This document shows positions 3,381-63,300 of a DNA stretch of 64,000 bases, in pieces. Source of the stretch: Klebsiella phage vB_KpnM_KB57. The notes beneath the pieces were generated by a model. That model saw nothing but the letters and a program-made list of their open reading frames with translations, did not search any database and was not told the DNA's origin. The position numbers and the translations under genes are program-made. Each line of letters opens with the position of its first letter. The stretch's first letter is position 1. The stretch lies in the sequence record NC_028659.1; one strand, given 5' to 3'.

Positions 3381-3575
3381 ATGATCCGCACAAAAATTCT
3401 TATCGCAGCATTGCTGCTCTCTTCTCCGGTATTCGCAACTGTAAACACTCTCGATTTGGTTGATGAATATACCAACGGCAGCTCTAAGGTCTGCGTTTAC
3501 AGCGACGGTCATCGAACAGAGACTGTAACAAAAGATGGCGCTGGTTCTTGTCCAAGTAAGAAAACATTTCATTGA
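3381..3575 (+). CDS. small secreted protein
   Basis: N-terminal signal peptide MIRTKILIAALLLSSPVFA; RBS AAAGGAG. Confidence 0.5.
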   Translation: MIRTKILIAALLLSSPVFATVNTLDLVDEYTNGSSKVCVYSDGHRTETVTKDGAGSCPSKKTFH

Positions 3576-3582
3576 GGGAATA

Positions 3583-4089
3583 ATGCGAGTAACTGATAAA
3601 TACGTCTTTTTCTTCACTTACCGGGATATGTTCAGTAATCACTACCGCCAAGTTATTCCTATTCGTTGTGGTGGTTACGAGTTTTTCACTGTAGAACATT
3701 ACATGATGTTCCAGAAGGCAATGCTCTTCGATGACAAAGAAATTGCTTCCCGTATCGCTACGGTTGATAACCCTAATGAGGCCAAAGCTCTTGGTCGTCA
3801 GGTAAAAGGTTTCGACAACAGCGTCTGGGAAGAAAATAGAATGGATATAGTGACTTCAGGTCTTGTATTGAAAATGAAGGCCAACAGATCTGTTCTCGAA
3901 GCTGCTCTTGGGCATCGAGATGCTGGGCGTAAGTTTGTGGAAGCCTCCCCTTATGATGCCATCTGGGGTGTTAAATTAAACGAATATGACACACGTATCG
4001 ATGACCCAACCAACTGGCGTGGTTTGAATCTTCTCGGTAAGTGCTGGGAACGAGCTATTGATATTGTTGTTGCTGCAACGTGGAGGTGA
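3583..4089 (+). CDS. NADAR (YbiA/DUF1768) domain protein
   Basis: GGYEFFTVEHYMMFQKAMLFDD...EASPYDAIWGV matches NADAR conserved blocks; start at ATG 3583 after GAGGGA. Confidence 0.65.
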   Translation: MRVTDKYVFFFTYRDMFSNHYRQVIPIRCGGYEFFTVEHYMMFQKAMLFDDKEIASRIATVDNPNEAKALGRQVKGFDNSVWEENRMDIVTSGLVLKMKANRSVLEAALGHRDAGRKFVEASPYDAIWGVKLNEYDTRIDDPTNWRGLNLLGKCWERAIDIVVAATWR

Positions 4090-22370: not shown

Positions 22371-23618
22371 ATGAAAGTATATCTGGTAGGTGGCGCTGTT
22401 CGTGATGGTCTGCTGGGTCGTCCAGTTCATGACCGTGATTACGTGGTTGTGGGTGCAACACACGAAGAGATGATTGAAAAAGGTTTCACCCAGGTTGGCG
22501 CTGCTTTCCCGGTGTACTTGCATCCTGAAACCAAAGAAGAATACGCACTGGCCCGTACTGAGCGTAAAACTGGTGAAGGCCATACTGGCTTTGAGACCTT
22601 CTTCAGCCCGGATGTAACTCTGGAAGAGGATTTATCGCGTCGTGACCTGACGATCAATGCGATGGCTAAAGACATGGAGACAGGATTTATCATTGACCCG
22701 TTCAATGGTATGCATGACCTGTCGAATATGATTCTTCGTCATACTACGTCGGCGTTCATGGATGACCCTCTGCGTATTCTGCGTCTTTTCCGTCTTAAGT
22801 CGCAGTTGGGTGAGAGTTGGTCTGTTGACCATAAAACATACACACTTATGTTTAATAATCGTCACCGTCTTGCGGAGATTAGCCCTGAGCGGAAATGGAA
22901 AGAAATGGAAAAGGCCTTAAATTCCAAAAACTTCCATAATTACGCCTACCACATGTCGATTATGGGCGAACTTCCAGAACTGGATGCCCTACGTGGAGTA
23001 GAGCAGCCACCAGAACATCACCCTGAGGGAGACGCTTTCATTCATACGTTGATGTGTCTGCAACAGGCCGATAAAACCTTTTGCTCTCCTCAGGTGAAAT
23101 TTGCGGTGCTGTGTCATGACTTTGGAAAGGCGATCACTTTCCGTAAGTACGGTAATCTTCTCGGTCATGAAGAGGCGGGTCTTGACCCTGTGCGGACGCT
23201 GTGCAGTCGAATTCGAGTTCCTAACGAATTCAGGGATATTGCACTGTACGTGACAGAGCACCATACTCGTGTGCATTGCATTTTGGGCCGTGGGAATAAT
23301 AAAGGAATCAAGCCCCGTTCCATGATGAAGCTTTTCGAGGCCGCAGGTAACGTGGCTAGTCAGAAGACACAGGATAAGGTGTTTTCCTTAGCAGACGCCT
23401 GTTTCTGCGATGCCCGTGGTCGTGGTGCCGCCCACGCAGACAAGGAATACCCTCAAGGAAAAATTCTCCTTGATGCTTTCGAGGCAGTTGTAAATATGGA
23501 CAGCAAGGCGGTATCTTCCGCAATGCTGGAGAAAGGCAAAAGCGGTAAGGAGATCGGTGAGGCGATCCGTGTTGCACGTATCGATGCAATCCGTAATGTT
23601 CTTAAGGAGAGATCATGA
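22371..23618 (+). CDS. cca: CCA-adding tRNA nucleotidyltransferase (class II NTase head + HD domain)
   Basis: YLVGGAVRDGLLGRPVHDRDYVV head motif; HD-like region later in the protein. Confidence 0.85.
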   Translation: MKVYLVGGAVRDGLLGRPVHDRDYVVVGATHEEMIEKGFTQVGAAFPVYLHPETKEEYALARTERKTGEGHTGFETFFSPDVTLEEDLSRRDLTINAMAKDMETGFIIDPFNGMHDLSNMILRHTTSAFMDDPLRILRLFRLKSQLGESWSVDHKTYTLMFNNRHRLAEISPERKWKEMEKALNSKNFHNYAYHMSIMGELPELDALRGVEQPPEHHPEGDAFIHTLMCLQQADKTFCSPQVKFAVLCHDFGKAITFRKYGNLLGHEEAGLDPVRTLCSRIRVPNEFRDIALYVTEHHTRVHCILGRGNNKGIKPRSMMKLFEAAGNVASQKTQDKVFSLADACFCDARGRGAAHADKEYPQGKILLDAFEAVVNMDSKAVSSAMLEKGKSGKEIGEAIRVARIDAIRNVLKERS

Positions 23619-25676: not shown

Positions 25677-26750
25677 ATGATGGAAAATTTCGAAGTGATG
25701 CGATGCCACTCAGGAAGTTTGGCTTATGGCACAAATCTGCCAACTAGTGATGTGGATATCCGGGGTCTGTTCTGCGCCCCTCCTAAATTCATTCGCACAC
25801 CGTTCTTTAACATTAAAGAGCAAACACTGGAAGACGAAGAGGATGGAAAGATTTATGAGCTGACAAACTTCATGAAGTTGTTTGCTGAGATGAATCCTAA
25901 CATTATCGAGCTGATGTTTGTCGATGATGTGGATATCCTGCAAACCTCCGAAGTTTATGAATACCTACGCACAATGGCTCCGGCGCTGCTGACAAGTAAG
26001 GTCGCATTTTCCTTCTCTGGCTATGCGATGGCACAGCTTAAGCGTATTCGCGGTCATGATAAGTGGATCAGCAATCCTCAGCCAGAGGCAAAGCCTACGC
26101 AAAAGGAGTTCTTCCGCTTAGTTCACAACTATAGTGAGAACGAGTTCCTTGCTGGGGCAATTAAACATGATCGTTTCATGGAAGCAATGAACAATCTCAA
26201 CGATATGTGTATCCTTGTGCCTTATGGGAATGATATCTACGGGGTGATGGAAAACTTCAGCAGCTCAGGGATGTTCAATGCTGACGGTTCAATTCGCCAT
26301 GTTGACTATCAGCAACTTTCTGACTCCGACAAGCGGAGAAAACCTGTCTTTATTGTCAAATATTTGGCAGAGGAACACAAACAGGCCAAAGAGAAGCATC
26401 GTAACTATTGGACATGGAAACAGAACCGAAATGAAGTTCGTCACCAACTCGAAGTTGATTTTGGTTATGACACGAAACATGCGATGCACCTTGTACGCCT
26501 GATGCGTATGGCAGAAGAGATTCTTTCTGATGGGAAGGTCCTCGTGAAGCGTCCTGATGCTCAGGAACTTCTCGATATCCGGGCGGGTAAGTGGACGCTT
26601 GATGAGCTACTCTCATGGGCTGATGAGAAGGATCGCTATATCCGTGAGGATTTGTACAAAAAGACACAGCTTCCTAAAATGGCGGATCTCGACCTGTTTG
26701 CTAGGGTTCTCATGACGGCTCAGGATATGTGTTGGAGTAAACTGGTATGA
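25677..26750 (+). CDS. Pol-beta superfamily nucleotidyltransferase (RlaP/CD-NTase-like)
   Basis: hG[GS]x10DxD core: HSGSLAYGTNLPTSDVDIRGLF, with a downstream acidic VDDVDI. Confidence 0.55.
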   Translation: MMENFEVMRCHSGSLAYGTNLPTSDVDIRGLFCAPPKFIRTPFFNIKEQTLEDEEDGKIYELTNFMKLFAEMNPNIIELMFVDDVDILQTSEVYEYLRTMAPALLTSKVAFSFSGYAMAQLKRIRGHDKWISNPQPEAKPTQKEFFRLVHNYSENEFLAGAIKHDRFMEAMNNLNDMCILVPYGNDIYGVMENFSSSGMFNADGSIRHVDYQQLSDSDKRRKPVFIVKYLAEEHKQAKEKHRNYWTWKQNRNEVRHQLEVDFGYDTKHAMHLVRLMRMAEEILSDGKVLVKRPDAQELLDIRAGKWTLDELLSWADEKDRYIREDLYKKTQLPKMADLDLFARVLMTAQDMCWSKLV

Positions 26751-28852: not shown

Positions 28853-30499
28853 CTATTTGATTCTTTTTCCACCATGTTTTTCATAAATGGCGATGACTTT
28901 TTCTAAGTCTAGCACAGAAACGGTCTCTGTCCAACCATCTTTCATCTCACGAGCAGAAAGAACACCTGTTTTCAGAGTTTGTTTACACTCTTCTTCTGCC
29001 AGCCTACATATATGTACAGAGGAAAACTCCCAAACACCTAAATTCTCACAATGGAATATACTTTTTAAATTCTGCTGCTTTATTCGCACCCTGTAGTCTT
29101 TGGCTATACCGATCTTTAATGCTACAGCCGAATCTGAATCAAAAACAATATTCACATAGGCTTGAGTTTGAATTTGTCCAGCGCACATTTTACAGCCTCG
29201 GCCTCTAATATGGCTCTCAGCCAACTGTTCAAAAACACCATGAGTCTTGCAAATTATTTTAACCTTCTTTCTTGCGGTTTTGTAATCCACAAGGCTGTAG
29301 TCGTATGTCTCTCCGTGAACAGTCTTAGCCTCTTGGATAAATTTAATGACCCCCTTATTTGTGTTCCGTACCCCACATCTAGGGCAACCAGCCCCCTGGC
29401 GGACTGAAGAATACTTGGTTGTGAAAACACCATGAATACTGCAACGCTGCATCACGACTGCATCCACCCAAGATTTGGTGTCTTTAGACACTGATATAAA
29501 ATCCAGATGGTGTTTCAGTGCATTGGCACGACACCTGTCTTCTACTTGGCTTTGCTTAAACCTTAAAAATCCAGATGTGTGAGAATCAGCACATTTAGGA
29601 CAACCGTGTTTTGCCTTTTTAATTTGTTGGATCTGTGTCTCAAAGAACCCATGCAACTTACATTCCAAAGTGACTGGCGTTTTTGCACCATTAAAATCCC
29701 CCGTCGCAACCAGTCTGAACGCCAAACCCTTCTTTTTTAGAATGTTTTTTACAACGAACGCCACATCTTCGGTTTTTTTGTATTTTTTGGTAACACATCT
29801 GCAAGGCATCTTACCAGCCTTTAAATTATCCCTTGAGGATGTGAAAATCCCAGAGCATAAACCACTTGAGACAAACTCATCTTCACTGCATACCGGGCAT
29901 CTATAAGACCACATATCCTTTTTCCCTAGAGATCTCCCAAATATGGTTCCCTCTTTAAACATCCCTGTATTGTAAAAATCCGAAATGTGGTCTTCATCTT
30001 TCTGGAATTTACTCCTAGATATATTTAATCCTTTACATGACGGGCACTTATAGCCTTTTTTTAGAAATTTAAACTCCTGTGTGAAAGATCCATGCAATGC
30101 ACAACCCCTTTTGACAAGCGTGTTCTGACCTAAAAATTCACCTTGAAGACCCTCGAAAGGATGCTCCGAATCTTTGCATAACCTTAAGGAGAGTGTTTTA
30201 ACTCCTTGCTCTGTATAACGTGGGTTTTTTGAGCAATAGCAGGGGAGATAACCAAGTTGAAGAGATCTTTTTTCAGAGTAAAAAACACCATCCCCATGTA
30301 ACTCAGGGTCCATAGAACATGTGCTACAAGAAAGTATATAGCGCTGCCTATTCCTACCTTTAGAGCTAACCCAGATCAACCCTACAACCTTCAACACCCC
30401 ACCCTTCGGTGTCTCGAATGTTGGTCTTGTCAAACTCCATTCATCCTGTTCAAGGTCTTCTGCACAAGTAACACCAAAATCACTGTAGTTCAAAATCAA
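28853..30499 (-). CDS. multi-zinc-ribbon + T5orf172 (GIY-YIG-like) domain protein, homing-endonuclease-like
   Basis: at least 4 repeats of Cx2HGxF...GxGCPxC; C-terminus YVNIVFDSDSAVALKIGIAKDYRVRI...DGWTE matches the T5orf172 domain; TTG start (30499 or 30493). Confidence 0.6.
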   Translation of the reverse strand: MILNYSDFGVTCAEDLEQDEWSLTRPTFETPKGGVLKVVGLIWVSSKGRNRQRYILSCSTCSMDPELHGDGVFYSEKRSLQLGYLPCYCSKNPRYTEQGVKTLSLRLCKDSEHPFEGLQGEFLGQNTLVKRGCALHGSFTQEFKFLKKGYKCPSCKGLNISRSKFQKDEDHISDFYNTGMFKEGTIFGRSLGKKDMWSYRCPVCSEDEFVSSGLCSGIFTSSRDNLKAGKMPCRCVTKKYKKTEDVAFVVKNILKKKGLAFRLVATGDFNGAKTPVTLECKLHGFFETQIQQIKKAKHGCPKCADSHTSGFLRFKQSQVEDRCRANALKHHLDFISVSKDTKSWVDAVVMQRCSIHGVFTTKYSSVRQGAGCPRCGVRNTNKGVIKFIQEAKTVHGETYDYSLVDYKTARKKVKIICKTHGVFEQLAESHIRGRGCKMCAGQIQTQAYVNIVFDSDSAVALKIGIAKDYRVRIKQQNLKSIFHCENLGVWEFSSVHICRLAEEECKQTLKTGVLSAREMKDGWTETVSVLDLEKVIAIYEKHGGKRIK

Positions 30500-51135: not shown

Positions 51136-51539
51136 GTTTCTACCTCCAGATAATTATTCAAGTGATTTTTAACAACCTCTTGGGCATACTCTTGAGATGC
51201 ATCATTGTAGTGAAGAACAGCCAGATCACATCCAAGTTTGTGCAAACTTCTCTCGAATGGAGACAAGTGTGTCATCATAACTTCGACCAGACTTAGCTCT
51301 TCTTCTGTGATATGGAGGGGATCATCCGTGAAATCCCTGGAAATGATAATCTCCCTCTCACCACCTTCTCCGGCACCATATACCTCGACAATCTTCCTGT
51401 TACAGAAGATGTCATACCTGTAGCCAGTCAGATCATGACCATTTTGTACTTCAAAGTTCACAATGAGACAACAACCAAGCCCCATCAAGTAAACCTCAAA
51501 ATCTAAATTGTGGACAACTTTCTTATTTAAAGTGCTCAT
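51132..51539 (-). CDS. hypothetical protein
   Basis: 135-aa ORF. Confidence 0.45.
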   Translation of the reverse strand: MSTLNKKVVHNLDFEVYLMGLGCCLIVNFEVQNGHDLTGYRYDIFCNRKIVEVYGAGEGGEREIIISRDFTDDPLHITEEELSLVEVMMTHLSPFERSLHKLGCDLAVLHYNDASQEYAQEVVKNHLNNYLEVET

Positions 51540-52950
51540 CCAAATCTACCGCCTTCCCGAATGGAGCTAACCAACCCTTACGACCACCGCAGATAACCCA
51601 GAGAGTGTTGTACTTACGTCCCCAGCTTGAGCCACGATGTCTCAGGTCCTCGATGTAACCATCTGTGAAGATTATAACCTCTTTTGCCTTAGGAATAAAC
51701 TCATCGATGTACTCAAAAGCACATGCCGCAGTCGTTCCACCAGTCGATGTAACTCTGTAATCCAGAATTTCCTTTATGTTGTCCTGTGTGTACACGTTGA
51801 CGTTGCCAACTTGGGTTGACCAACAGAACAATGTGATACGGAAACATTGGTACAGGGTGCTCAAAGCGATGATCTCATTAAAGATACGTGTCATTGTTTG
51901 ACGAGAGATAGAACCTGAAACGTCAAAACCGATTACGATATCTACAGTTTCTGTTCGTTTTCTACCCGGCATAACCATGAACTGTTTCTTAGTTAAAGCA
52001 CCGTGATCACGAAGAACTTTTGTCATCCCGCCGGACCGACGACCTAAAACCCGATAAGTACGATCAGATTTAACACGAGAAATCATCCGTTGCTTAATTA
52101 TTTGCAGGTAATTAATCTTCGGTTTACCTTTTTGTGCGATTAATTCTCTGGCTTCTTTCGGTCCTTCACCGCCAGCGGCTTTCATAGCGGCGTCAATCAT
52201 GTCCTCAGACCAAGACATATCCTCATCTTCCTGATCAGGAGACTTCTGTGGGTGTGGGTCTGTATACCCCAGAATATCTAGGTCTTTATCATAATCCCCG
52301 ATGTGCGCCCCCAGCGGCTTACCTTTACTATCCCCGGCTTCACCAGGCAAAAGAGCATAAATTTCTTCAGCCGTTTTCCCCTCGTACTGATAGTCACAAT
52401 AGCAGTAAGCAAGGAATCCAAATTCTTTTGACTTATCAAACACTTGTCTATGAGTGAACCATTTCAAACTCTCGGCTTTCTGGCCCAACTCCTTGACCAG
52501 ATCAGTGTTGATATAGTGATCGGCTGCGATATTGAAACGTCTACGGTCAAATGTTTTCCCACGAGACATGTGGTCGTTGGTGACATGGCGGACCTCATGC
52601 ATTAGAATAAATACAATTTCCTTCATGGTTTTTTGACGATAGAAGACATCAACATATTCTTTATATTCATCTTTTTGCTGTTGTGTCATCATCGGATGCT
52701 TGTCAATACGAGCAAAGACTTTTTTCTTGCGATCAACAGGCATACCCATAATGAACTCTGGGTTGAAGTATAGGTTGCGATGATCAGTCGCTGCGGTTGG
52801 AAGCCATGCACAGTCAACTATCAGCGGCATACCGCTTAATAGCGTCCCGTAGAATGGTCGATTAGTAAGTAAAGCGATGCGGGCAGACTGAACTTTCTTC
52901 AGTGCTTCATCAGCCAGTTCCATAATGCTTTCTTTTTCATCTGTATACAT
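51523..52950 (-). CDS. DUF2201-type putative metallopeptidase (HExxH) + VWA domain protein
   Basis: ILMHEVRHV HExxH-like block; FDVSGSI MIDAS motif; ATG at 52950 after GGAGATAAG. Confidence 0.6.
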   Translation of the reverse strand: MYTDEKESIMELADEALKKVQSARIALLTNRPFYGTLLSGMPLIVDCAWLPTAATDHRNLYFNPEFIMGMPVDRKKKVFARIDKHPMMTQQQKDEYKEYVDVFYRQKTMKEIVFILMHEVRHVTNDHMSRGKTFDRRRFNIAADHYINTDLVKELGQKAESLKWFTHRQVFDKSKEFGFLAYCYCDYQYEGKTAEEIYALLPGEAGDSKGKPLGAHIGDYDKDLDILGYTDPHPQKSPDQEDEDMSWSEDMIDAAMKAAGGEGPKEARELIAQKGKPKINYLQIIKQRMISRVKSDRTYRVLGRRSGGMTKVLRDHGALTKKQFMVMPGRKRTETVDIVIGFDVSGSISRQTMTRIFNEIIALSTLYQCFRITLFCWSTQVGNVNVYTQDNIKEILDYRVTSTGGTTAACAFEYIDEFIPKAKEVIIFTDGYIEDLRHRGSSWGRKYNTLWVICGGRKGWLAPFGKAVDLDEHFK

Positions 52951-52999
52951 TCTTATCTCCAAGAAAAAAGGCCATCAGTTACGATGGCCTTATTATAGG

Positions 53000-57008: not shown

Positions 57009-57071
57009 TCATTGCAATGGGGGAGGATCAAATGTATCCTGCTCCCGAATTTCATTTACAGGAGACAAATA

Positions 57072-58268
57072 ATGTCAAGTCGCAACATCTTTTCTGGTAA
57101 CTGGATCACTTTGCGAGATCTTCCACCACTGGTGCAATTTTGCCAGCGTCACAAACGTTCACTGATGATCTTCGGTGGGGCAGGTATTGGTAAAAGTCAA
57201 GCTGTGAAGCAAATTGCGGATTCTCTTTTCGGGCCTGGTGATAACCTGGTAGACTTCCGCTTGGCTGATAAAGATAACACTGACCTCACCGGGGTGCAGA
57301 TTCCATACACCGATGACAATGGTGTTACTCGCACAGTGTACGCCTTGCCGGATTTCTGGCCCCGTGATCCTAACTGGAAAGGTATTGTGTTCCTTGACGA
57401 GCTTCTCCACGCAGAACCTTACCTTCAGAAACTAGCATTCCAAATCATGCTGGACCGTCGAATCGGGACCTACCAGTTCCCTGAAGGGGCTGTACTGGTT
57501 GCTGCGGGTAACCGTGCTGGGGATGGTACTGCCGTGACTGCACTGGAAGCTCCTTTGGCTAACCGTATGATGCTGGTAGAGCTTACCTATAGCGCATCGG
57601 TGTTCATCGAAGACTATGCCATGCAGAACGGTATTCATTCGTCAATCATTGGTTTTCTGTCGCGTAAGAACAGTGCTATTGAAAACTATGAAGAAATGCT
57701 GGATATCGGGTGTCCTTCTTTCGCCACACCGCGTACTTTAACTTACGCCAGTGATGTATTGTACGATTACGATGCTAATTTGCTGCCTGCCAACCTAGCT
57801 AAAGTGGCCCTTCAGGGCTTCATTGGCACACCTTTAATGGCTGAACTGTGGGCATACCACACCAAGATTCGTAATATGGTTCCGATCGAAGATGTTATGA
57901 ACGGTACTGCCCAATATCCTGGAGACCTTCCATCAGACAGTCTGTGGATTTTGGGTTCAGAAGGCGCCATTTGGTTGCGTAAGGCTATTGCAGATACCAA
58001 TTACACGGATGACCAGATTATTGAATTCTCTGGAAACTTCCTTCAGTATCTTTACGACCACTTTATGGACCAGAACCGAGACTTCGTAAGCTCTATCTTC
58101 CTGTCGTTCATTAAGGAAAATGCGTTTGGTAAAGCTTTGTTGACCACTGCGAGCAACCGTGACAAGCTTCCTGCACGTTTGTTGAAGGCAAAGCCTATCA
58201 TAATGAAAATTATGGCAGACTTCCAGGTCAACTACGCTGAAGATATTAAGCTTATTGAAGGAAAATAA
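57072..58268 (+). CDS. MoxR-like AAA+ ATPase (AAA_5)
   Basis: Walker A MIFGGAGIGKSQ, Walker B VFLDELLHAEP; ATG 57072 after AGGAGA. Confidence 0.7.
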   Translation: MSSRNIFSGNWITLRDLPPLVQFCQRHKRSLMIFGGAGIGKSQAVKQIADSLFGPGDNLVDFRLADKDNTDLTGVQIPYTDDNGVTRTVYALPDFWPRDPNWKGIVFLDELLHAEPYLQKLAFQIMLDRRIGTYQFPEGAVLVAAGNRAGDGTAVTALEAPLANRMMLVELTYSASVFIEDYAMQNGIHSSIIGFLSRKNSAIENYEEMLDIGCPSFATPRTLTYASDVLYDYDANLLPANLAKVALQGFIGTPLMAELWAYHTKIRNMVPIEDVMNGTAQYPGDLPSDSLWILGSEGAIWLRKAIADTNYTDDQIIEFSGNFLQYLYDHFMDQNRDFVSSIFLSFIKENAFGKALLTTASNRDKLPARLLKAKPIIMKIMADFQVNYAEDIKLIEGK

Positions 58269-58270
58269 TA

Positions 58271-58299
58271 TTGACAGCTCCTCATGGGGCTGTTATGCT
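58271..58299 (+). promoter_or_regulatory. promoter TTGACA-17-TATGCT with TTATGTA box
   Basis: near-identical extended motif to the promoter at 35671. Confidence 0.55.
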
Positions 58300-58326
58300 T
58301 TATGTATCAAACATAAGGGGAAATAC

Positions 58327-58522
58327 CGTGTATAAATTAACTTGGGAACAAGCAAAGCAGGCCATGCGTGAGGGCAAGCGTGTCCGCAATAAATGGTTTT
58401 CCGGCGATGAGTTCTTTGAAATGAAGGATGGAAAAATTGTTTGTGAAATGGGATACAACATGGCTAAGTGGTATCGCGGAGAATCTTGGCAGGACTGCTG
58501 GGGATGGAGTGTGATCGAATGA
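58327..58522 (+). CDS. DUF2829 (Tad2-like) small protein
   Basis: KLTWEQAKQAMREGKRVRNKWFSGDEFFEMKDGKIV fits the DUF2829 N-terminal pattern; GTG start after AAGGGG, downstream of the promoter. Confidence 0.45.
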
Positions 58523-58704
58523 TCAAAAGCTATCATCGATGGTTAACGATTCAAGAAAAGAATATACTCCGTGGCGTTCCTGGGTATAGCCCCAGCACTG
58601 ATGACATTCTTGATAGAATGGTTGAATTTTTTAAAGAGCCACGAGAACACCTCAAAAATGTTCTTGGAGCTTGGGATGGCACACCAGAGAGTATAAACGA
58701 ATGA
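58519..58704 (+). CDS. hypothetical protein
   Basis: ATG 58519. Confidence 0.4.
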   Translation: MIKSYHRWLTIQEKNILRGVPGYSPSTDDILDRMVEFFKEPREHLKNVLGAWDGTPESINE

Positions 58705-58853
58705 TCTACAAGAACCAATTCAGAAACACCTGGCGCAAGTTTGTTAACGGTAAAGGCTATGTGTCTGGTGACCAAGGCCTCACCTGGACAGAAAACGGTG
58801 CCCCTGAGGACTTGATCAAGCGATTACCTTATTACGTGGAGGTTAAAGTATGA
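58701..58853 (+). CDS. hypothetical small protein
   Basis: ATG 58701 coupled to the upstream stop. Confidence 0.35.
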   Translation: MIYKNQFRNTWRKFVNGKGYVSGDQGLTWTENGAPEDLIKRLPYYVEVKV

Positions 58854-59131
58854 GACGTTCACCAGGTTTTGGTTATATCTACATTCCCGATTTTACTGGG
58901 GAAGAGCGCCTTGTTAGGATCAGTGACCTTGACATCAGTGATATTGAAAACCAGGCACGATATGGACAGGCTGAAAAAGAGTGTTATCTTCGTACAGACA
59001 ATGGCTTCTGTCAGTCAGGCTGGACATCTGGCATAACTGCAATGGAAGTTCTTGAGAAGATTGCTAAACACGATAAAGATAATCTTGGAGCCTTCCGTGA
59101 TTATGCCATCGTAATCGGATTGTCCTCATGA
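58850..59131 (+). CDS. hypothetical protein
   Basis: 93-aa ORF. Confidence 0.45.
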   Translation: MRRSPGFGYIYIPDFTGEERLVRISDLDISDIENQARYGQAEKECYLRTDNGFCQSGWTSGITAMEVLEKIAKHDKDNLGAFRDYAIVIGLSS

Positions 59132-59141
59132 AGGGGGAATT

Positions 59142-59561
59142 ATGGTAAGAAACTTTTGGAATCCTGACGAGGTCGCGTTGCCTGACGAAGGTAAAGATAT
59201 CCCACCAGGGTTTACGGAATGTCTTGCATTCCAGGTCGGGTGCGACAGCATCATGAAAAGGGAAGCGTCTGTACCGATCACTGAAGCGCATTTCAAAAAT
59301 GTCGGAGGTGCTAATGACCTAGTGCAGGCATATCAGCCACACTGGTTCGATATTGAGGCGATGATCTGTTTCTTTACGCACTGTATGGTGTATGGCGACC
59401 GTGAAACTTTCCGCCCTGCATATGATCGTGTCCAACGTTTGGCTGATGAAGTGAGGGAATTCGGTTGGAATGAGGACCGTGTTCGCCGTTGCAAGGCTCT
59501 CGGAGGGCTTGAAAAAGAGGTCTATGAGGTCTACCCTCATCTTTTTGTACAACAGGGGTGA
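59142..59561 (+). CDS. hypothetical protein
   Basis: 139-aa ORF with RBS. Confidence 0.45.
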   Translation: MVRNFWNPDEVALPDEGKDIPPGFTECLAFQVGCDSIMKREASVPITEAHFKNVGGANDLVQAYQPHWFDIEAMICFFTHCMVYGDRETFRPAYDRVQRLADEVREFGWNEDRVRRCKALGGLEKEVYEVYPHLFVQQG

Positions 59562-59564
59562 TGA

Positions 59565-59873
59565 ATGAATCTTCAGAACATTGGGCCAGAGTTAACAGAA
59601 GACCAGAAAGAAGAACTGGAAAAGGTCCGTGAAGCCCTCAAAGAAATGGTTGGCGATAGAAAGATTGTTGTTCTTGGTTGTGGTAATCCTGTGGGGTACT
59701 CAACACTAGCTTCTTTGTGGGATGCAGAAACCATTTCTTTGGACGCGATATCTGCCCGTCCTGCAAACAATATCATTATGATTGATAATGATGATGTTGA
59801 CTATGCTAAGTTTAAGATCTTTAAGGGGCGTGGTCACAACAAACTAAAGAAGAAAAAGAAGAAGAGGAAATAA
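59565..59873 (+). CDS. hypothetical protein with Lys-rich tail
   Basis: C-terminal KKKKKKRK. Confidence 0.45.
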   Translation: MNLQNIGPELTEDQKEELEKVREALKEMVGDRKIVVLGCGNPVGYSTLASLWDAETISLDAISARPANNIIMIDNDDVDYAKFKIFKGRGHNKLKKKKKKRK

Positions 59874-60049
59874 TGGCAAAATTCAAATTCCCAGTTTCTG
59901 AACTAAACGAGTGTTGGTGGCTTGACACCGCCGACTGCGTTATGGCAGGATACACCTATCGACGGCATCGGGTGTTTGTTGTCTGTGCGAAAAATCGTGC
60001 GGATGCTATTGAATCCATGAAAGATTTTAAAGAGAGGAGTTGCAAATGA
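59873..60049 (+). CDS. hypothetical small protein (58 aa)
   Basis: GAAGAGGAAATA then ATG 59873; not in track. Confidence 0.35.
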   Translation: MAKFKFPVSELNECWWLDTADCVMAGYTYRRHRVFVVCAKNRADAIESMKDFKERSCK

Positions 60050-60270
60050 ATTTAGACCAGATTGTTACAGGAAGTAAGGTTAAGTTTAATCCCAATCAAG
60101 ACTGGATGGAGGAAGATTATTCTTTGGATGGTGTTTCCATCGGGGATATAGGTGTTGTTGTTGGGGTTGATTGCGGTGATGTCTTAGTTGACTTCACCCG
60201 CCAAGACGGGACTGTCTCAGAAGGTTTTTATGCTTTCCCTGAAGACTTGGAGATTGTACATGAAAGTTAA
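60040..60270 (+). CDS. hypothetical protein
   Basis: 76-aa ORF. Confidence 0.45.
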   Translation: MQMNLDQIVTGSKVKFNPNQDWMEEDYSLDGVSIGDIGVVVGVDCGDVLVDFTRQDGTVSEGFYAFPEDLEIVHES

Positions 60271-60433
60271 AATGACGAAACACTACAGCGCCCATCCTGA
60301 AGAGCCACGTTCTGGTGATATTCTTGAAGTGGTGAGTGAGAAATATAATGGCTCTTTCCTTGACCACTATATGTGTGAGTGGAAGGGGATGGATATCGTT
60401 GTCTATCCTGATGAATGTGAGGAAGTGCGATGA
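60260..60433 (+). CDS. hypothetical small protein
   Basis: ATG 60260 within track ORF 60188-60433. Confidence 0.4.
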   Translation: MKVKMTKHYSAHPEEPRSGDILEVVSEKYNGSFLDHYMCEWKGMDIVVYPDECEEVR

Positions 60434-61041
60434 GCTTCAAATACAAAGTTGGTGACCTGATCGAGGCTGCAAAAAGCGGTGAGATTAATGTCTTTGGACA
60501 TGGCTGTAACTGTTTTTGCACAATGGGGAGCGGAATCGCCCCGTTGATCAAAGAAGCATTCCCTAAGATGTACGCTGCCGATCTGAAAACTGAGAAGGGC
60601 GATAAGACCAAGCTGGGAACCTGTACAATGGCCTTTTTGAATGATGGATCTCTCGCAGGATTTAATCTGTATTCGCAATACGGCTATAATCGCCGTAAAC
60701 AGGGCCTCAGGGACCTTGATTACAATGCCCTGTACGATTCGATGGTTGAGATGAAAAAGCTCTTACAGAGCTATACAGACGGCCCTATGGACACCTATCG
60801 AATCGGGTTCCCTAAAATCGGTGCTGGCCTTGCAGGCGGTGACTGGAACGTCATCGAGGCAATGATCAAATCAATCTTCTTTGATTGTGATGTGACAGTT
60901 TATGTCTTGAAAGAATGGGAAATCCCTGGTTACTACCCTCCAGACGACGGCCCTCTGACATCAGAACAGATCGCTGCCATTCGGGAAATGACAAAATGTG
61001 GATTATCCACAGGGGGGACTGGATTATCGTGGTTAAATTGA
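60430..61041 (+). CDS. macro domain (ADP-ribose binding/hydrolase-like) protein
   Basis: NVFGHGCNCFCTMGSGIAPLIKEAFP and GFPKIGAGLAGGDW resemble macro-domain glycine-rich loops. Confidence 0.5.
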   Translation: MSFKYKVGDLIEAAKSGEINVFGHGCNCFCTMGSGIAPLIKEAFPKMYAADLKTEKGDKTKLGTCTMAFLNDGSLAGFNLYSQYGYNRRKQGLRDLDYNALYDSMVEMKKLLQSYTDGPMDTYRIGFPKIGAGLAGGDWNVIEAMIKSIFFDCDVTVYVLKEWEIPGYYPPDDGPLTSEQIAAIREMTKCGLSTGGTGLSWLN

Positions 61042-61049
61042 GAGACGGT

Positions 61050-61238
61050 ATGGTAGCACATACCAAAAAGATCGACCTTTATGTGGGTAATACGGTGTTA
61101 ACCTATAACGCCCCTCGTGGTCAGAGCTTTGCCATACTACTACTTGGGGTAGAGAAACCAAGTGGTGACGGCACGGGTATTCAGATTGACGAATGGCTGA
61201 ATAGTCGTGGCTGGAAGCTGGAGGGTCCTGATGAGTAA
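61050..61238 (+). CDS. hypothetical protein
   Basis: ATG 61050 after GAGAGACGG. Confidence 0.35.
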   Translation: MVAHTKKIDLYVGNTVLTYNAPRGQSFAILLLGVEKPSGDGTGIQIDEWLNSRGWKLEGPDE

Positions 61239-61464
61239 ATCGGTTTTTGTCATCTATGACACTGTTGACAGATGCCTCTGGAACCACAAAGCCAAGATTG
61301 GATGGATTAGCTCTGGCGCTGCCAAGAATGCGTGGAATCTTGTCCACGCAACATGGAGTGGGAAGCAGTATTTTGATGACCAACAAAGATATGTAGTTCT
61401 TGAACTTTCTGGCGGACACATTAGCAAATTATTTGAGGAGAATAAAATTGACAAAACCAATTAA
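61231..61464 (+). CDS. hypothetical protein
   Basis: GGAGGG RBS then ATG 61231. Confidence 0.4.
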   Translation: MSKSVFVIYDTVDRCLWNHKAKIGWISSGAAKNAWNLVHATWSGKQYFDDQQRYVVLELSGGHISKLFEENKIDKTN

Positions 61465-62491
61465 ATACCCAAGCACCGCACAGTTCCGTCAGGTTATCCG
61501 CACCATGCATGATAAACTGACGTTCGACGGTATTGATGAAGAGGGCAATATCAAGCGGAAGGTGTTGCCACCGGAAGCGTACCTGATCCCGTACATCGGT
61601 ACGGTTAAGCTTCACGGCACTAATGGCAGTGTGGTATTCCACTCTGAGGATGAAGTTGTCTTCCAGTCCAAAGAGCGTGTCGTGACTGTAGGTGACGATA
61701 ACAATGGCTTCGCGGCCTTCATGTCTCGAAAAGACACCGCAGAGTTGCTTTCTCAGGTTAAATATCTGTGTGAAGTCAATGACGTTGAGTTCCAGTTCCC
61801 GGTTGAAATTGCTGGTGAATGGGCTGGTCGCGGCATTCAGAAAGGTGTCGCCATCACTGAAGTAGAGCCGTTCTTTGCTATCTTCCGTGTGGCTGTGGGA
61901 CGGGATGAGGCAACGGATACCCTCAACTGGCTACCACCAACGTTCCAGTTTGGAATTGGATTGCCGGATGCTCGTATCTACAGTATCCTTGACTTTGGTT
62001 ACTGGATGGCTAATATTCCATTCAATGAGCCAGAGCTTGTCCAGAATGACCTGGCAGAACTGACTCGTGAAGTGGAAAACAAATGCCCGGCAGGTAAGTT
62101 CTTTGGCGTAGAAGGTATCGGTGAAGGCATTGTCTGGTCTCCAAAAGATCCTGAGCTTTCTAAAATCTCTGGCCTGTGGTTTAAAGTCAAGGGTGATAAA
62201 CACTCTGTATCCAAAGTTAAGACCCTGGCGGCAATCGACCCAGAACGCCTCGCAAGTATGCGTGAGTTCGTTGAGTACGCTGTGACGGAAGCACGTCTTG
62301 AGCAGGGTGTCAGCGAAGTAGGTCTTGACCAGACTAAGATCGGTGAATTCATTGGGTGGATTAACCGAGACATCAACAAGGAAGAGGGTGATGTTCTGGA
62401 AGCCAGCTCCATGACCATGAAAGATGTTGGCAAGTTTATCAGCAACAAAGCTCGTGCATGGTACATGACTCGTCTGAGTGAGGAGGGCTAA
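61448..62491 (+). CDS. Rnl2-family RNA ligase
   Basis: nucleotidyltransferase motif I VKLHGTNGSV (T4 Rnl2 has KIHGTN); GAGGAG RBS then TTG 61448. Confidence 0.6.
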   Translation: MTKPIKYPSTAQFRQVIRTMHDKLTFDGIDEEGNIKRKVLPPEAYLIPYIGTVKLHGTNGSVVFHSEDEVVFQSKERVVTVGDDNNGFAAFMSRKDTAELLSQVKYLCEVNDVEFQFPVEIAGEWAGRGIQKGVAITEVEPFFAIFRVAVGRDEATDTLNWLPPTFQFGIGLPDARIYSILDFGYWMANIPFNEPELVQNDLAELTREVENKCPAGKFFGVEGIGEGIVWSPKDPELSKISGLWFKVKGDKHSVSKVKTLAAIDPERLASMREFVEYAVTEARLEQGVSEVGLDQTKIGEFIGWINRDINKEEGDVLEASSMTMKDVGKFISNKARAWYMTRLSEEG

Positions 62492-63258: not shown

Positions 63259-63300
63259 TATACAGCCCCGCAATGGGGCTTTTTAATTTGGAGTGTAAAT

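Follow-up and report, generated by a model that had tools for sequence, protein, structure and literature searches.

Within positions 58,271 to 62,491 of the 64,000-nucleotide stretch analysed here (the window), the genome of Klebsiella phage vB_KpnM_KB57 (NC_028659.1) carries three genes of particular interest: ORF1, for a short protein with a DUF2829/Tad2-like fold; a gene for a macro-domain protein of the phage Tk.4/Adpp family; and a gene for an Rnl2-like RNA ligase. Small open reading frames (ORFs) are interleaved with them: ORF1 and the macro gene have eight of these between them, and another two separate the macro gene from that of the ligase. A gene for a NADAR-domain protein lies near the start of the window (Table 1). 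Proteus phage Mydo is 99.9% identical over the 4.2-kb stretch, which identifies the genome as a Mydovirus (Vequintavirinae), and many Klebsiella Mydovirus phages of this subfamily are 93-99% identical to it; the annotations of KPP-1 and Mydo give the same gene order as the window, small ORFs included. A preliminary description of this DNA had named a DUF2829-type protein, a macro domain, an Rnl2-family ligase, a NADAR gene (cited at 3583) and eight interleaved small ORFs. All were recovered, the eight ORFs being those between ORF1 and the macro gene; the DUF2829 and macro folds were found by both profile and structure prediction, and the macro and NADAR genes confirm that the phage has two ADP-ribose-processing folds.

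The Macro-Domain and NADAR Proteins

The macro protein scored 22.6 bits against the Pfam Macro model, barely above the cut-off of 22, and other profile and fold evidence for the domain is strong. The protein matched PHROG 335 with an E of 4e-65, and a profile built from 64 homologues matched BT1257 (1.8e-21), SCO6735 (1.8e-18), TARG1 (1e-15), Poa1p (3e-10) and DarG (7e-10). Its AlphaFold2 (AF2) model had a pLDDT of 90.5, and the top 21 fold matches in the PDB were all ALC1-like macro domains. Among phage proteins, it is 35% identical to Tk.4 of T4 over 167 amino acids (aa) (E 4e-28; hhalign 99.9%) and 38% identical to gp182 (Adpp) of Vibrio phage Gary over 162 aa (E 8e-36); with Tk.4 and Adpp 35% identical to each other, the three are roughly equidistant. 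The family comprises 2,935 phage records, those of T4-like phages included.

Gln83 and Asn27 were invariant among the 64 homologues, and His24 nearly so. Gln83 occupies the position of the catalytic Lys in DarG and TARG1, and of Gln85 in SCO6735; the latter residue is essential to an enzyme that takes ADP-ribose off thymidine in DNA and also neutralises DarT (PMC9411070). SCO6735 and BT1257, the best sequence matches of solved structure, are 24-28% identical to the macro protein and share with it His24 and Asn27, a Gln in place of Lys80/Lys84, and a mobile loop that is long and basic; the HGCNC motif of the phage protein, however, resembles that of Poa1p, unlike the HVCND of SCO6735. DarG2 belongs to the same macro class, and its likeness extends to the N-terminal 60 residues (PADLOC DarG E 1.8e-9; NCBIfam DarG E 4.6e-8) and to fold matches with 5m3e and 5m3i. 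Its catalytic Lys (K80 of the Taq protein) is replaced by Gln in the phage protein; the match covers only positions 3-60 of 329, and the score is 32.7 bits against the DarG equivalog cut-off of 250. Because it is without the C-terminal DarT-binding domain, the macro protein is, as judged from its sequence, not a DarG. The Lys-type AdfM of PhiKZ (gp104), of this macro class too, is only 18% identical to it.

Two members of the phage family have been linked to function, each in a different setting. Loss of tk.4, the product of which was named AdfM, renders T4 sensitive to DarTG2 (bioRxiv 10.1101/2025.11.20.689424), whereas Adpp of phage Gary converts ADP-ribose (ADPR)-1''-phosphate to ADPR and is needed for NARP1-AP to defeat aRES; Klebsiella pneumoniae was the source of one of the aRES systems tested (bioRxiv 10.64898/2026.01.28.702374). 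The evidence for Tk.4/AdfM is genetic, resting on the DarTG2 sensitivity, and the window protein is likened to it by sequence: the two have in common PHROG 335, the AHGCNCF-TMGSG, NLYxQ and P-IGAG motifs, and the Gln at the catalytic-Lys position. Tk.4 differs in that its mobile loop is six residues shorter and it has no C-terminal tail, and T4 is without NARP1. Adpp of Gary has the long mobile loop, and the Mydovirus lineage also possesses an Adps/Namat-like pair; however, the Gary gene lies between Adps and Namat while the Mydovirus macro gene is some 66-70 kb from such genes, and position 31 is Arg in Adpp and Thr in the window protein.

No residues telling AdfM-type from Adpp-type function were found, His24, Asn27 and Gln83 being common to all three proteins, and the length of the mobile loop did not track with reported function among them. 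An ADPR-1''-phosphate phosphatase activity, serving the NARP1 reconstitution of NAD+ against aRES, was missed in the preliminary description and would fit about equally well as an AdfM role; on balance, a slight preference may be given to the Adpp role. The pair in KPP-1 that resembles Adps and Namat of Gary (39% and 37% identity; E 2e-50 and 1e-101, respectively) is encoded in the same genome as its macro gene, and hence an Adpp role in trans is feasible. The macro protein may also perform both reactions.

The C terminus of the macro protein (60922-61041; residues 165-203) forms a tail of approximately 40 residues with low pLDDT that is absent from most homologues, these being 164 aa in length. 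As the tail overlaps with the small ORF that follows it, it could be a recent read-through or fusion.

The NADAR gene is real and provides the second ADP-ribose-processing fold. AdfN of Bas60, a NADAR protein from the Vequintavirinae, neutralises DarT1, and phages are rescued by it on DarTG1-carrying hosts (PMC11825919); the likeness of the window protein to it lies in the domain and the shared subfamily. The NADAR protein of W70, an Escherichia coli phage of the Vequintavirinae, is 48% identical to that of the window.

ORF1, a Short Relative of Tad2

ORF1 starts with GTG behind AAGGGG, in the place where its relatives use ATG, and its homologues are 63-64 aa long. It had no match in Pfam (E<=1; E<=0.01 in a second scan), NCBIfam or PADLOC, remaining below the gathering score of PF11195, and its PHROGs assignment, phrog_3474, is without a functional label. 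An exhaustive homologue search gave at least 245 representatives of clusters formed at 50% identity; PF11195, named 'Tad2-like', was matched by 32 of the 147 representatives scanned. The longer proteins of the family offered no informative fused domains.

The relation to DUF2829 came from profile and fold comparisons. In the comparison of ORF1 with Tad2 structures, which the preliminary description had envisaged, a profile built from eight close homologues matched three solved Tad2 proteins weakly at the N terminus, always in one register (E 0.17-0.57), while the AF2 model (pLDDT 84.5) returned Tad2 proteins as its top 14 PDB fold matches (probability 0.85-0.99; TMq 0.59-0.72), with the probability falling thereafter to 0.08. 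Matches of the model in BFVD included proteins named DUF2829 or Tad2-like, some of just 60-63 aa. A hidden Markov model (HMM) of close homologues of Tad2 from phage SPO1 scored ORF1 at 8 bits only, and therefore profile-profile comparison was needed to detect the relation: hhalign of 86 ORF1-family sequences against 97 SPO1 Tad2 homologues gave a probability of 94.6% (P 7e-8) over 35 N-terminal columns. With SPO1 Tad2 (gp34.65) ORF1 has in common an N-terminal helix, a G-K-x-V turn, a beta-sheet and a C-terminal W-x-I-V-E strand. On this evidence of sequence profile and model, the assignment of ORF1 as a remote DUF2829/Tad2 relative holds. A likeness to LIM-homeobox proteins, suggested by a PDB sequence search (fusion proteins, E 0.007-0.04), was rejected, the alignment covering 26 residues without the zinc-ligand pattern and the fold search giving Tad2 only.

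ORF1 is, however, 64 aa long against the 89 aa of SPO1 Tad2. Global alignment placed a deletion of about 25 residues across the beta2-beta3 loop, and the alpha2 helix is missing from the AF2 model of ORF1; in SPO1 Tad2 this loop bears the alpha2 helix that forms the V-shaped dimer (bioRxiv 10.1101/2023.05.01.538930). The residues of SPO1 Tad2 that contact glyco-cyclic ADPR (gcADPR), namely G24, W25, N26, T65, W73, S76, T78 and D79, are kept in 97-100% of Tad2 homologues. At the contact positions the ORF1 family carries the replacements F24, S/T25 and W54, and W48 is conserved in 35%; it has instead near-invariant residues of its own, E28, E40, G42 and W60. Given the loss of both the gcADPR contacts and the dimer segment, a gcADPR/Thoeris role is not inferable from the fold and is a mere possibility, and the proposal in the preliminary description that ORF1 is a Thoeris signal sponge is left unsupported. 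Since members of the Tad2 family have come to bind other ligands, among them His-ADPR, N7-cADPR and cCMP/cUMP (PMC12393519), a sponge role of another kind is possible.

Comparison with K54_rec3 revealed that its ORF1 is only 67% identical to that of the window and that ORF2 is missing there, while the following 3.8 kb are 99.7% identical; such divergence between near-identical phages is as expected of an accessory gene that changes quickly. A sharp mosaic boundary is thereby marked at genes one and two of the block (window 58327-58704 against K54_rec3 locus 2316-2507).

The RNA Ligase and Other RNA-Repair-Type Genes

The Rnl2-family assignment of the ligase is correct, with Pfam PF09414 (RNA_ligase; E 6e-8, 33.4 bits against 27) and PHROG 548 (E 4e-76) both matched and all catalytic motifs present. 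The KLHGTN sequence of motif I, pointed out in the preliminary description, begins at K70, which aligns with K35 of T4 Rnl2; motifs III, IIIa, IV and V are GEWAG, FFAIF, EGIVW and FKVKG, respectively, the placement of motif V being somewhat ambiguous. R299 and D324 are the equivalents of R266 and D292 in the C-terminal domain of T4 Rnl2. Overall identity to T4 Rnl2 (RnlB) is 26% over 102 aa only, and the phage protein has about 35 extra N-terminal residues. From its shared nucleotidyltransferase motifs and C-terminal domain, the protein is predicted to be a divergent Rnl2-type enzyme of Rnl2-like architecture. Its clade numbers 154 phage records, mainly from the Vequintavirinae and Thalassavirus.

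Two other genes of the window, at 22371-23618 and 25677-26750, encode an HD-domain CCA-adding tRNA nucleotidyltransferase and an RlaP 'RNA repair pathway' nucleotidyltransferase of the T4 nrdC.11 family. Relatives of the phage have about 20 tRNA genes; in the window, no tRNA genes or Rfam families were found. RlaP, the CCA-adding enzyme and the tRNA genes of the relatives would fit an RNA-repair role of the ligase.

In OY757067.1 (Klebsiella phage vB_Kpn_K23PH08C2), the deposited annotation is out of register with the sequence, such that the Rnl2-like ligase is found under Sir2 and ATPase labels. The annotation of that record, with Sir2, ATPase and Nampt beside the ligase, was consequently discarded.

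A Co-directional Block of Accessory Genes

From 54.4 kb to 63.8 kb, every gene lies on the + strand in tight packing, with several ATGA overlaps of stop and start codons. The promoter-like site ahead of ORF1 falls in the 58-nucleotide gap between the stop of the ATPase gene (58268) and the start of ORF1 (58327). The strong conserved promoter announced for this position in the preliminary description is present as a site, and it is conserved in KPP-1, K54_rec3, K23PH08C2 and Erwinia phage Hena1, the last a member of another genus (Henunavirus); it occurs once in the window and once per genome stretch examined. Promoter-like sites were not in excess over the 9-kb region (18 observed, 15.1 +/- 4.1 expected by chance), and a consensus match alone is therefore weak evidence. 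The hairpin in the spacer is maintained despite base changes in K54_rec3, K23PH08C2 and Hena1, its stem being CTCC/GGGG in the window, TCCC/GGGG or CCCC/GGGG in other genomes, and CCTC/GAGG in Hena1; given this upkeep of the stem, the element may also serve the ATPase gene as a hairpin for termination or RNA processing. A predicted promoter at 58271 and the terminator-like hairpin at about 63264 would plausibly delimit a transcription unit of approximately 5 kb, and the stretch is probably the front part of a Mydovirus co-directional accessory-gene block with these limits.

Table 1. Features of the 58,271-62,491 stretch, together with the NADAR gene and the downstream terminator-like hairpin (window coordinates).
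Feature	Position	Strand	Remarks
NADAR-domain protein (AdfN-like)	3535-4089	+	Pfam E 5.7e-35, 121 bits against cut-off 35
Sigma-70-like promoter, TTGACA-17-TATGCT with TG extension	58271-58299	+	10 of 12 consensus positions; kept in four relatives
10-bp hairpin in promoter spacer, terminator-like, directly 3' of ATPase gene	58272-58295	+	dG ~ -16 kcal/mol, z ~ -4
ORF1, 64 aa, DUF2829/Tad2-like fold	58327-58522	+	profile-profile comparison, fold search
ORF2, 61 aa, phrog_19887	58519-58704	+	ATG overlaps ORF1 stop (ATGA); absent in K54_rec3
ORF3, 50 aa, phrog_2381	58701-58853	+	
ORF4, 93 aa, phrog_12924	58850-59131	+	
ORF5, 139 aa, phrog_24126	59142-59561	+	no PDB sequence match
ORF6, 102 aa, Lys-rich tail, phrog_27594	59565-59873	+	
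ORF7, 58 aa	59873-60049	+	PHROG label 'baseplate wedge subunit' doubtful
ORF8, 74 aa, phrog_7871	60046-60270	+	
ORF9, 57 aa	60260-60433	+	'exonuclease' label in some records doubtful
Macro-domain hydrolase (predicted), phage Tk.4(AdfM)/Adpp family	60430-61041	+	ALC1-like class, Gln type
ORF10, 69 aa	61029-61238	+	
ORF11, 77 aa	61231-61464	+	
Rnl2-like ATP-dependent RNA ligase (predicted)	61400-62491	+	start uncertain: relatives annotated from 61448 or 61505
Intrinsic-terminator-like hairpin, strong, with T-run	63264-63288	+	likely transcription-unit end

The order ATPase, small ORFs, macro gene, small ORFs, ligase and cell-wall hydrolase is conserved in the Vequintavirinae. As a conserved functional cluster, the block does not stand: in T4 the macro gene adjoins vs, and in Phapecoctavirus it is found near TerC-like genes, with no ligase beside it in either. 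In Thalassavirus and Pakpunavirus the macro gene is inside or beside NARP1, that of Thalassavirus lying between Adps and Namat, and RNA ligases are 3-4 kb off. A loose, recurrent neighbourhood of NAD+/ADP-ribose genes and RNA ligases has been recognised in large phages (Iyer et al. 2022, PMC9503650). There is no fixed operon arguing for one joint mechanism; with the adjacency specific to the lineage of the window, the genes are read as independent modules.

In the close relative KPP-1, the region at 68.9-78.4 kb, which corresponds to the DNA just before the start of the window, holds the NARP1-like pair together with genes for another RNA ligase, for a DNA ligase and for a Sir2-like protein. 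This NAD+/ADP-ribose-centred neighbourhood lies upstream of the NADAR gene, no more than 10 kb away.

Proposed Functions and Alternatives

From the demonstrated identities, homologies and conserved residues of these genes, the following activities and targets are inferred. The macro protein would free ADP-ribose from an adduct made by host immunity, the substrate being either ADP-ribosyl-thymidine set on phage DNA by DarT2, as documented for T4 Tk.4/AdfM, or ADPR-1''-phosphate made by aRES, the dephosphorylation of which would permit NARP1 enzymes to rebuild NAD+, as with Adpp of Gary. The NADAR protein most likely strips ADP-ribose from DarT1-modified guanine, a reaction demonstrated for a NADAR of the Vequintavirinae. 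The ligase would catalyse ATP-dependent, Rnl2-type sealing of RNA nicks and probably mends RNA cut by host nucleases. ORF1 may trap a small signal molecule, though probably not gcADPR as SPO1 Tad2 does. That three mutually independent host-interaction genes, set among ten small ORFs, act in these ways is favoured with moderate confidence. The reversal of DarT-type ADP-ribosylation envisaged in the preliminary description accordingly retains the backing of two homologues (T4 Tk.4/AdfM and Bas60 AdfN). The degradation of ADPR-derived messengers was likewise proposed there; breakdown of cyclic ADPR signals has been reported for no member of the macro family.

A number of observations count against this interpretation. 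Both experimental studies of the macro family are preprints, and they disagree in the substrate to which they point. Lys34 of SCO6735, important there for activity on DNA, is Ser in the macro protein, and the KPP-1 macro gene (139.8 kb) lies at the distance given above from the NARP1-like pair (68.9-71.5 kb), outside the NARP1-operon position. The ligase scored 20.9 bits against the TIGR02307 Rnl2 equivalog cut-off of 197 (NCBIfam), and no end-healing kinase or phosphatase partner was identified for it. To these are added the lack of a Pfam match for ORF1 and the replaced gcADPR contacts of its family, as well as the promoter, predicted from a consensus match only.

Of the alternatives, one concerns ORF1 alone: the DUF2829 scaffold may serve an unrelated early function, such as the binding of a host protein or nucleic acid, rather than that of an immune-signal sponge. 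The family's own set of invariant residues and the lost Tad2 pocket and dimer element are consistent with this, as is the finding that roughly one in four of the sponge-family homologues tested failed to inhibit any of seven systems (PMC12393519); a DUF2829 protein was also once proposed as an anti-CRISPR (bioRxiv 10.1101/2023.05.01.538930). On the other hand, Tad2 is the only fold matched among solved structures, ORF1 is the first gene of an early-looking block beside other counter-defence genes, and its high divergence between near-identical phages fits an arms-race gene. Such an unrelated function is thus considered rather unlikely.

The macro protein and the ligase might alternatively form an RNA-repair pair, in which the former, acting like Poa1p, would clear the ADP-ribose-1''-phosphate produced by a Tpt1/KptA 2'-phosphotransferase during tRNA repair. 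Poa1p is among the best fold matches of the macro protein, and the two have the HxCNC motif in common; the macro gene is 0.4-3.5 kb from an RNA ligase gene in Mydovirus, Henunavirus, Thalassavirus and Pakpunavirus; the window encodes RlaP and the CCA-adding enzyme; and links of this kind were discussed by Iyer et al. 2022 (PMC9503650). Tpt1/KptA was, however, not seen in the genome parts examined, the tested members of the macro family work in DarTG2 or aRES/NARP1 settings and not in RNA repair, and the Thalassavirus macro gene is placed between Adps and Namat, not by the ligase. Moreover, no 2'-phosphate remains when an Rnl2-type enzyme seals 3'-OH/5'-PO4 nicks. Such a pairing is very improbable.

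Equally little credence is given to an integrated model in which ORF1 is a gcADPR sponge against Thoeris and the macro protein degrades ADPR-derived messengers, forming with the ligase one counter-defence cluster: the Tad2-like fold and profile relation of ORF1, the functional plasticity of a family that inhibits several signalling systems (PMC12393519), the single transcription block common to all the genes, and the divergence of ORF1 amid near-identical flanks, a pattern known for anti-defence genes, would speak for it, but the SPO1 Tad2 contacts are replaced or poorly conserved in the ORF1 family, the deletion takes out the loop and the dimer element, ORF1 has no Pfam match, cyclic ADPR signal degradation has not been reported for any Tk.4/Adpp member, and T4 and Phapecoctavirus are without the macro-ligase adjacency.

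With three independent modules as the preferred reading, the phage would be a large Klebsiella phage that stacks several answers to NAD+/ADP-ribose immunity, with NADAR and a Tk.4/Adpp-type macro protein in the window and, in close relatives, Sir2, another RNA ligase and a NARP1-like pair added just outside it. In Klebsiella phage therapy, knowing which of DarTG1, DarTG2 and aRES a phage overcomes would help in the prediction of host range. A phage that has NARP1 and keeps its macro gene elsewhere in the genome also makes a good test case for the two activities reported for the macro family. What goes beyond routine annotation is only the short Tad2-like family, which could hint at a novel ligand, and the reported dual function of the macro family; the genes are otherwise of known kinds. 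The bolder combination, in which ORF1 represents a distinct, truncated DUF2829/Tad2 branch that, having given up the dimer helix and the pocket for gcADPR and acquired an invariant site of its own (F24, E28, E40, G42), perhaps sequesters a different and possibly novel immune signal, and in which the Tk.4/Adpp family is bifunctional, is decidedly unlikely; if true, a single Tk.4/Adpp enzyme would both erase DarT2 marks from DNA and feed ADPR-1''-phosphate into NARP1.

Minor Observations

ORFs 2-11 gave no matches in Pfam, NCBIfam or the PDB. The PHROG labels 'baseplate wedge subunit' and 'exonuclease', attached to proteins of 57-58 aa, look spurious given their size and, for ORF7, its position. 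The end of ORF6 (59840-59873) encodes eight basic residues, KKKKKKRK, in mixed AAG and AAA codons, and where this run ends it overlaps with the ORF7 Shine-Dalgarno sequence.

The ATPase gene that precedes the promoter (57012-58268, + strand) encodes an AAA+ protein with weak Clp-like similarity and no Pfam match. A DUF2201 metallopeptidase/VWA protein is encoded at 51523-52962 on the - strand, and the two genes form a pair reminiscent of the MoxR-VWA type. Finally, a 548-aa protein with CapR-homology and DUF723 domains is encoded at 28853-30499 on the - strand.

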